Below are positions 11,590 through 11,861 of a stretch of DNA of 63,864 nucleotides, piece after piece. Within the stretch, counting starts at the first letter, position 1, and every line of letters starts with the position of its first letter. The notes beneath the pieces were generated by a model. The model had not been told where the DNA came from and searched no databases. It saw only the letters and a list, made by a program, of their open reading frames with translations. Made by a program: the position numbers and the translations under genes. The stretch lies in contig CAZLXM010000008.1 of NCBI GenBank assembly GCA_964563105.1, positions 1-63,864 on the forward strand, in the 5' to 3' direction. This DNA comes from an uncultured Bacteroidaceae bacterium (GTDB lineage Bacteria; Bacteroidota; Bacteroidia; Bacteroidales; GCA-2748055).

Positions 11590-11861
11590 TTAGCTAAAAT
11601 TACTCCGATGAAATTCCCATATATTTTGCATGTATAAAAAGGCATAAAATCATAAAATGAGCCTCAAATTAGAAATTGGACCGTCATCAATATGGGCAAA
11701 AAATTTAGGAGTTTCATCAGAGTAAATTAATTAACAACGAAATAACTAAATTATTTTCTGATGAATTCTCCAGATTCCTGCATATACAAGAGCAGGGCAA
11801 AATCCGTGAAAATCATCAAAACTTATTAATTTACAATGAAATAACTAAATTTTTTCTAATG
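11590..11861 (+). repeat. Tandem leader units (linker motif + uORF + anti-start-codon arm) upstream of pntAA
   Basis: Linker TTAACAACGAAATAACTAAATTATTTTCTGATG (11731-11763) recurs as TTTACAATGAAATAACTAAATTTTTTCTAATG (11830-11861). 17-nt inverted repeat at 11601-11617 / 11708-11724. Confidence 0.8.

Follow-up and report, generated by a model that had tools for sequence, protein, structure and literature searches.

The leader of the pntAA gene in the stretch of DNA analysed here (the window, 63,864 nt in all) very probably consists of a native leader of 50 nt followed by two tandem copies of a dispersed, non-coding repeat of approximately 100 nt. The repeat is probably a mobile element of the non-autonomous kind, or what remains of one. 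The two units are members of a repeat family with a very high copy number. Most likely they leave pnt expression unchanged or modulate it mildly, and do not respond to a ligand; a regulatory side-effect on pntAA translation is possible.

Repeat units in the pnt leader

The ORFs starting at 11859, 12984, and 13298 were identified as pntAA, pntAB, and pntB, respectively, and the divergent gene upstream as sucA. An earlier note on this DNA had described stems, near-identical linkers, a 98-nt spacing of ATG codons, and a -7 box in the pntAA leader, and we found all of them where the note had placed them. The segment TACTCCGATGAAATTCC (11601–11617) is complementary to GGAGTTTCATCAGAGTA (11708–11724) with 15 Watson-Crick pairs, one G-U pair, and one mismatch, and a repeat search extended this inverted repeat to 33 nt with 82% complementarity (11597–11629/11696–11728). 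The repeat search also returned a direct repeat of 43 nt (11714–11756/11813–11855; 81% identical, start-to-start distance 99 nt). The proposal of the note that the leader is made of two homologous units, each a hairpin plus a linker with a start-codon copy at its end, is correct. The distance from ATG 11761, at the end of linker 1, to the pntAA ATG at 11859, at the end of linker 2, is 98 nt, and the words TGCATGTA/TGCATATA and GGGCAAAA are common to both units. Unit 1 is a family member with approximately 55 extra loop nucleotides, and a 9-codon ORF starts at its first ATG. The ATG of unit 2 (11761) starts a 22-codon ORF with its stop codon at 11827–11829. A motif search found no TAnnTTTG elsewhere in 11558–11858, so the units carry no promoter box of their own.

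The locus is not an assembly artefact, since contigs from three independent studies cross the junctions without a mismatch (X2, 11575–11895; X3, 11647–12124; X1, 11055–11677 and 11717–12600). Transcription of the leader was seen in the form of a single low-depth contig (11636–12012) among four metatranscriptomes, which carries the units and pntAA on one RNA.

Some further features of the leader were observed. The extra nucleotides of unit 1 (approximately 55 nt, 11626–11680) include a small hairpin, AGGC...GCCT, and their metagenome depth is at baseline, as for single-copy sequence. The reading frame of pntAA is open upstream of the gene from 11707 to 11858, across the unit 1 tail and unit 2 (EFHQSKLINNEITKLFSDEFSRF...FFLMTIG), and this extension contains no ATG, GTG, or TTG. 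The 3' arm of unit 1 runs on as CAGAGTAA (11718–11725), which is complementary to TTACTCCG of the native leader (11600–11607). Canonical copies have CAGAACGA at the place of CAGAGTAA, and all three differences improve the pairing with the native flank; judged by this pairing, they could be an adjustment that took place after insertion.

Features of the pnt leader and of the response-regulator array (window coordinates). The last five rows give start codons and their predicted accessibility.
Feature	Position	Strand	Evidence or remark
-7 promoter box, Bacteroidota-type, TATTTTTG	11550–11557	+	Same octamer before pntAA in L077, L080, L082, and L084
Native pnt leader, 50 nt	11558–11607	+	Length equal to that in L080; ungapped identity 32/50
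Relic of ancestral pntAA start, ATGAA; doubles as left terminal repeat of unit 1	11608–11612	+	
Repeat unit 1, 153 nt	11608–11760	+	Family profile search (nhmmer), E = 1.7e-18
Unit 1 hairpin, 5' arm	11600–11617	+	8 nt of native leader + ATGAAATTCC; partner 11708–11725
Unit 1 hairpin, 3' arm, GGAGTTTCATCAGAGTAA	11708–11725	+	Alternative partner 11755–11769
Unit 1 tail (linker), A/U-rich, kept across family copies	11726–11760	+	
Repeat unit 2, 98 nt, degenerate hairpin and tail	11761–11858	+	nhmmer, E = 4.2e-18; fold
pntAA	11859–12974	+	Start is ATGA(C), remade at right end of unit 2
Relic of regulator start (ATGA) and degenerate first unit	16293–16435	+	Partial nhmmer match 16358–16440, E = 0.008
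Repeat unit RR_B, 98 nt, left end ACG instead of ATG	16436–16533	+	nhmmer, E = 3.3e-19
Repeat unit RR_A, 102 nt, best-preserved copy	16534–16635	+	nhmmer, E = 4.5e-25; fold z = -4.7
Response-regulator gene	16636–17340	+	ATGAAA start is right terminal repeat of the array
Relic ATG	11608		Predicted unpaired probability 0.00
Relic ATG	11761		Predicted unpaired probability 0.00
Relic ATG	16534		Predicted unpaired probability 0.00
pntAA true start	11859		Predicted unpaired probability 0.68
Regulator true start	16636		Predicted unpaired probability 0.60

Empty sites at the pntAA start in relatives

Relatives of PntAA with 74–81% identity were obtained from a protein search, and their contigs keep the sucA/pnt neighbourhood. 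The comparison covered four distinct pnt loci: L077 (with the near-identical L078 and L079), L080/L081, L082/L083, and L084. In L077, L080, L082, and L084, only 30–50 nt separate TATTTTTG from the pntAA start, and the start region of the relatives reads ATG/GTG-AAA-ATY-GGT-ATT-CTG. In the window, exactly 50 nt lie between the box and ATG 11608, as many as before the start codon in the closest relative (L080, 81%), and the two 50-nt leaders match without gaps at 32 of 50 positions, a value that was reached by 0 of 20000 shuffles. Its distance from the -7 box, equal to that of the L080 start codon, marks ATG 11608 as the ancestral pntAA start.

Similarity to the relatives ends after the ATGAA at 11608 and returns at AATTGGTATTCT (11864 onward), and approximately 251 nt are inserted between the ATGAA and the AATTGG of the ancestral pntAA. 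The comparison with the relatives thus identifies the units as an insertion inside the ancestral pntAA start codon. No family copies were found in the pnt loci of the relatives (L077–L084). The N-terminus of PntAA is MTIG in the window versus MKIG in the four distinct relatives (VKIG, from GTG, in L080), and the A-to-C change (11862–11864) sits precisely at the right junction of unit 2 and is a one-base scar of the insert. A search for PntAA in a genome collection gave only relatives of 62% identity or less (L001–L015), which are too distant for a leader comparison.

The earlier note had explained the leader as a cis-regulatory RNA of pnt that arose by duplication of the gene's own initiation module. 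This explanation does not fit the empty leaders of the relatives or the dispersal of the repeat family. The note had also held that a lack of covariation in homologous leaders would count against its reading, and the situation found is in essence of that kind: there are no homologous leaders in which covariation could be sought, because the orthologous pnt leaders (30–50 nt) are entirely devoid of the units.

Three other observations concern the same region in the relatives. One predicted protein, P0127 (a PntAA with 45 extra N-terminal residues), was considered as a further copy of the repeat and rejected, as the extension is a read-through of the native leader of L084. The spacer between sucA and pnt in L077 (9690–9790; also in L078 and L079) contains the GC-rich palindromes CCCCCTAAAGGGGG, CCCCCTTGGGGG, and GCCTGCCGGTTGGCAGG, which are another repeat type in the same spacer. 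L084, and only L084, has a 135-aa ORF without a Pfam match between sucA and pntAA (9580–9987).

A second array at a response-regulator gene

A local search revealed a second array of the repeat approximately 5 kb from pnt, between the genes of a histidine kinase (15006–16280) and a response regulator. The array (16293–16641) comprises 343 nt and three to four units. The spacer between the kinase and regulator genes is 355 nt in the window versus 15 nt in L082 and L083. The junction in these relatives consists of the kinase stop codon, 15 nt, and ATGAAGACAAAT, whereas in the window the kinase stop codon is followed by 12 nt and ATGA, 343 nt of tandem units, and then CTGATGAAAACAAAT. The regulator protein of the window starts with MKTNK, like its relatives. 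By this comparison, the ancestral start codon of the regulator was split just as that of pntAA was.

RR_A shows the complete order of elements, that is ATGAAACCTCCA, a loop, TGGAGGTTCCAT, a 43-nt A/U-rich tail, and ATGAAA (16534–16641 including the terminal repeat). When the 64-kb window was searched with a family profile built from the copies, only the pnt and regulator units matched.

Anatomy of the unit

The unit is approximately 100 nt long and consists of an ATGAA start, a hairpin, and an A/U-rich tail, with the end ...TTTTCTGATGAA (...TTTTCTG-ATGAA); lengths of 98, 102, and 153 nt were found. Its opening stretch of approximately 12 nt, which reads ATGAAACCTCCA in the best copies, base-pairs with TGGAGGTTCCAT inside the unit, and the A/U-rich tail of approximately 43 nt comes next. 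The left end of the repeat is ATGAAACCTCCATGTACTATCG and the right end AATTATTTTCTGATGAA. The inverted repeat is thus formed by a left-terminal and an internal arm, the latter 43 nt from the right end, and the left end contains no inverted counterpart of the right end itself (...AATTATTTTCTG), so that the unit is without terminal inverted repeats. To the left, the flanking sequences vary as far as (A)TGAA, and on the right the unit invariably ends in ...CTGATGAA(A). Every well-preserved copy has (A)TGAA(A) at both ends, representing either a sequence-specific target duplication or the unit's own sequence.

Folding and accessibility of the start codons

Folding energies were compared with those of shuffled sequences. 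Folding more stable than that of the shuffles was seen to some degree for the whole pnt leader (z = -2.5) and strongly for the segment 16525–16645 (RR_A; z = -4.7), but not for unit 2 alone (z = -0.7) or RR_B (z = +1.0). The predicted fold of unit 2 contains the TGATGA/TCATCA and CCTGC/GCAGG stems. The unit has one strong hairpin on the left, and pairings in the tail are weak and of the A-U type only. Across eight copies, 79.8% of the cells of the stem ATG.AACCTCCATG and its partner were paired, in comparison with 28–43% when the partner was slid. Five stem pairs vary on both sides in these copies (e.g. ACCTCC/GGAGGT, ACCCCC/GGGGGT, and AATCCC/GGGATT), and metagenome variants carry the same alternative pairs. 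The hairpin is real, compensatory changes included.

The accessibility of the ATG codons was predicted by partition-function folding of two transcripts from the window. The values in the table (0.00 for ATG 11608 and ATG 11761 versus 0.68 for ATG 11859) are in line with the burial of the upstream ATG codons of the pnt leader that the earlier note described, and leave the last one free.

A search of the whole window with Rfam 15 gave 0 matches at the gathering thresholds and only chance-level matches in E-value mode; the note had likewise recognized no known riboswitch class in the leader. The weak C/D-box snoRNA matches in E-value mode come from the junction motif CUGAUGA (11759–11765, 16532–16538, and 16634–16640), and a C/D-box reading of this motif was rejected. 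A hammerhead was also considered from CUGAUGA and rejected, because the following stem reads CCAUCAG, not GAAA, and there was no Rfam match.

Copies elsewhere and copy number

The segment 11727–11765 was found on many other metagenome contigs with 90–95% identity and differing flanks, and its summed depth was approximately 266 versus 4.5–8. With RR_A as the query, matches of at least 85% identity were found in 134 contig pieces of run X1 and 108 of run X3 (wastewater or bioreactor metagenomes), the summed depth reaching approximately 1950 versus a baseline of approximately 5. Matching sequence in these pieces starts at 16534/16535 on the left and stops at 16641/16642 on the right, and their flanks are diverse. 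In the pnt copies, the metagenome contigs showed the tail to be better conserved than the hairpin interior.

The translated open +3 frame of the 102-nt unit was used as bait in a protein database. The matches were spurious 'proteins' of 57–120 aa made up of tandem units (P0121–P0126 and P0128), and two of them led to DNA. In L085/L086 (GC 38%), two tandem copies start from the ATGA stop/start overlap of the genes of an ABC ATPase and an FtsX permease; the terminal ATG of the array in L085 is broken, and the permease gene is now called 110 nt downstream. In L087 (GC 41.7%), a full copy and a partial one lie in a spacer of 860 nt, away from gene starts. The copies of the L087 and P0125 loci are followed by ORFs of 7–9 codons (7 codons at P0125), and are hence not at gene starts. 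P0121–P0123 probably come from other contigs of this same genome with arrays of two to three units. Copies were 80–85% similar between organisms versus 66–69% between neighbours in one array. A GC-rich palindrome in L087 (10140–10175; CCCCGAAGTTTCGGGG) breaks up the partial copy and may be a different small repeat.

Flanks could be read at four independent loci, three of which have the repeat at a gene start; a fifth flank, that of the P0125 locus, is not at a gene start. The window contains 330 ATGAA sites, 38 of them intergenic and approximately 7 at gene starts (approximately 45 non-disruptive sites), and against this background three of four loci correspond to p ~0.015, a value that comes from only four loci and is subject to ascertainment bias. 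The pattern hints at a preference of the repeat for gene starts, though with a tiny sample and this bias.

Two other types of scan did not extend the family. A scan of a metagenome collection with the linker core ACAAYGAAATAACTAAATT gave 61 loci (L016–L076), which were rejected as chance, since only the 19-mer itself matches. Scans of viral contigs with GGAGGTTCCATCAGAACGACG and ATAACTMAATTATTTTCTGATGAA gave 0 matches.

Origin of the repeat and its possible effect on translation

The reading that we favour is that of a selfish or formerly selfish repeat whose layout lets it survive inside a start codon. The repeat would insert in the ATGAA of a gene and leave two copies of the start codon. The old ATGAA, together with the 5' end of the unit, would form one strand of the hairpin, by which the relic ATG would be masked in vivo, while a fresh ATGAA at the 3' end of the unit would lie in unstructured A/U-rich RNA and in frame with the gene. 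Ribosomes would then initiate at the last ATG. The unit would spread by transposition, and head-to-tail arrays can accumulate, since each insertion provides a new flanking ATGAA. The genes that carry the repeat have unrelated functions (a transhydrogenase, a response regulator, and an ABC permease), which argues against a regulon.

Several findings count against this explanation. A Pfam scan of 30 window ORFs, all of them housekeeping, revealed no transposase, none is in the Pfam lists for the genes called in L085 and L087, and no longer parent element sharing the ends of the unit was found. Copies also occur away from gene starts (L087 and the P0125 locus). In eight DNA runs, no joints indicating filled/empty or array-length polymorphism at the pnt and regulator loci were detected among near-identical strains, so that these runs give no sign of recent mobility.

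It is conceivable, although unlikely, that the unit is an active mobile element with a preference for start codons of the ATGAA type, and hence a portable leader-plus-start-codon cassette. In such an element, the internal TTCCAT would possibly recognise ATGAA, and gene starts would be colonised without killing the gene, as the old ATG would be hidden and a new one presented. If this were true, the translation initiation regions of many genes would have been rewired in a lineage without Shine-Dalgarno-guided initiation. A genuine preference for start codons would in itself be uncommon as a choice of target, and would give selfish DNA a way to reshape 5' UTRs.

An unlikely alternative, suggested by the pairing potential of the arrays, is that the repeat-derived units have acquired a role in translational control, in which they would couple or gate the translation of pntAA. 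The 3' arm GGAGTTTCATCAGA (11708–11721) can pair either with 11601–11617 or with the downstream TCTGATGAATTCTCC (11755–11769), and RR_A follows the same logic, as TTCCATCAGAA is able to pair with TTCTGATGAA. In pnt unit 2 and RR_A, upstream ORFs of 22–23 codons stop 30–31 nt before the true start, and a similar 23-codon ORF is present in L085 copy 2, although its terminal ATG is broken. The three substitutions in the 3' arm of unit 1, relative to the canonical copies, strengthen the pairing with the native leader, and the conservation of the tail exceeds that of the loop in the pnt copies. That the tail is conserved above the hairpin interior could mean that it is not neutral but under selection for a role in translation initiation. 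Yet the upstream ORF varies in sequence and length (9, 12, 22, and 23 codons), many copies have decayed (e.g. RR_B with z = +1.0 and unit 2 with z = -0.7), and the genes that carry the units are unrelated, all of which speaks against co-option.

A pnt-specific cis-regulatory RNA, in the sense of a new riboswitch-like class produced by local duplication of the pnt initiation region, is very improbable. The tandem homologous units with their buried ATG codons would suit it, and the lack of an Rfam match makes a new class conceivable, but the units are missing from every orthologous pnt leader examined, and the same units occur at the response regulator and in L085 and L087, while each metagenome run has more than 100 contig pieces with them. 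It is also the sequence that is conserved, with decayed copies, and not a structure across taxa. We give hardly any credence to the idea that the units are coding, be it for the small peptide from the relic ATG or by way of the open +3 frame (ETSMYYRSQQENENIWRFHQNDVIINKITQLFSD): this frame has no stop within the 102-nt unit and continues along arrays, and gene callers have annotated such ORFs (P0121–P0126 and P0128), but all seven tail codons that differ between RR_A and pnt unit 1 are non-synonymous (7/7), the frame is not kept by units of 98, 102, and 153 nt, P0121 changes frame inside its array, and no Pfam domain is recorded for these ORFs.

The dispersed, probably mobile repeat has consequences for annotation. 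Long, structured leaders with upstream ORFs can in these genomes be repeat insertions and not riboswitches, and the open +3 frame of the repeat already yields spurious protein predictions in public databases. Bacteroidota largely lack Shine-Dalgarno-guided initiation, and a repeat that sits inside rebuilt start codons would offer a natural experiment on start-site selection in this phylum, with identical tails before unrelated genes and decoy ATG codons one hairpin away from the real ones.

Comparison with known repeats

We found no start-codon-regenerating repeat in Bacteroidota in the literature. By description, the closest described concept would be the REP2 repeats of Neisseria, together with similar IR sequences of Borrelia. 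REP2 elements (Parkhill 2000; Morelle 2003; reviewed in PMC3184786) are dispersed repeats of 120–150 bp without terminal inverted repeats. They contain internal stem-loops, and provide 5' UTR sequence and an ATG fused to downstream ORFs (PMC3184786). They carry a promoter and a ribosome-binding site, number approximately 25 copies, and serve a co-regulated gene set, and tandem arrays are not reported (PMC3184786). The present unit resembles REP2 in being dispersed, intergenic, and approximately 100–150 bp long, with internal inverted repeats or stem-loops and no terminal ones. It also lies directly upstream of ORFs, with the ATG at its end serving as the start codon of the downstream gene at pntAA (11859) and the regulator (16636). 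At the L087 and P0125 loci, the terminal ATG is not a gene start, and it is broken at L085. Unlike REP2, the present unit has no TAnnTTTG promoter box, the native upstream promoter being conserved, and it lies inside an ancestral start codon and leaves a relic ATG. It is usually tandem, far more abundant, and found at unrelated genes.

MITEs (e.g. Correia elements, Nezha, and RUP) are short, non-coding, multi-copy elements that form stable hairpins when transcribed (PMC3184786). Filled and empty sites are found between related genomes, and the elements are co-transcribed with neighbouring genes (PMC3184786). The present units share with MITEs a small size (98–153 nt), a non-coding nature, and multiple copies, here in three organisms, as well as the contrast between filled and empty sites: the pnt start is empty in L077–L084 and the kinase/regulator junction in L082 and L083, and both are filled in the window. 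In classical MITEs both termini carry inverted repeats and the target-site duplications vary, whereas the flanking direct repeat of the present unit is always (A)TGAA(A). Since it has no terminal inverted repeats, the unit is not a textbook MITE.

The palindrome-associated elements (PATEs) derived from IS200/IS605 and the REP/REPIN elements are moved by Y1 transposases. Such elements lack inverted repeats at their termini, form a hairpin close to one end, and always lie beside the same 4–5 nt; REP elements are GC-rich and usually located after genes. Like PATEs, the present unit lacks terminal inverted repeats and always adjoins one short sequence. Its internal TTCCAT and the flanking ATGAA are complementary, which recalls the pairing between guide and cleavage site, and head-to-tail arrays would be conceivable, since the right end recreates the target. 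PATEs carry subterminal hairpins at both ends; in the unit, one strong hairpin on the left and weak A-U pairings in the tail were found. Neither a Y1 transposase nor TnpB was found near it. Hairpin-guided movement of the IS200/IS605 kind is by this analogy a lead and no more.

The units also resemble riboswitches and RNA switches that sequester a start site, in that an ATG is buried in a hairpin and the region of the next ATG offers an alternative pairing partner. Unlike riboswitches, they show neither conservation at orthologous loci nor a conserved core resembling a ligand pocket, and they have a very high copy number, decayed copies, and no Rfam match.

Elsewhere in the window, and in support of its origin from Bacteroidota, the segment 26234–42937 contains an ORF of 5151 aa followed by a PorP/SprF gene (type IX secretion), and looks like the locus of a giant secreted or surface protein.
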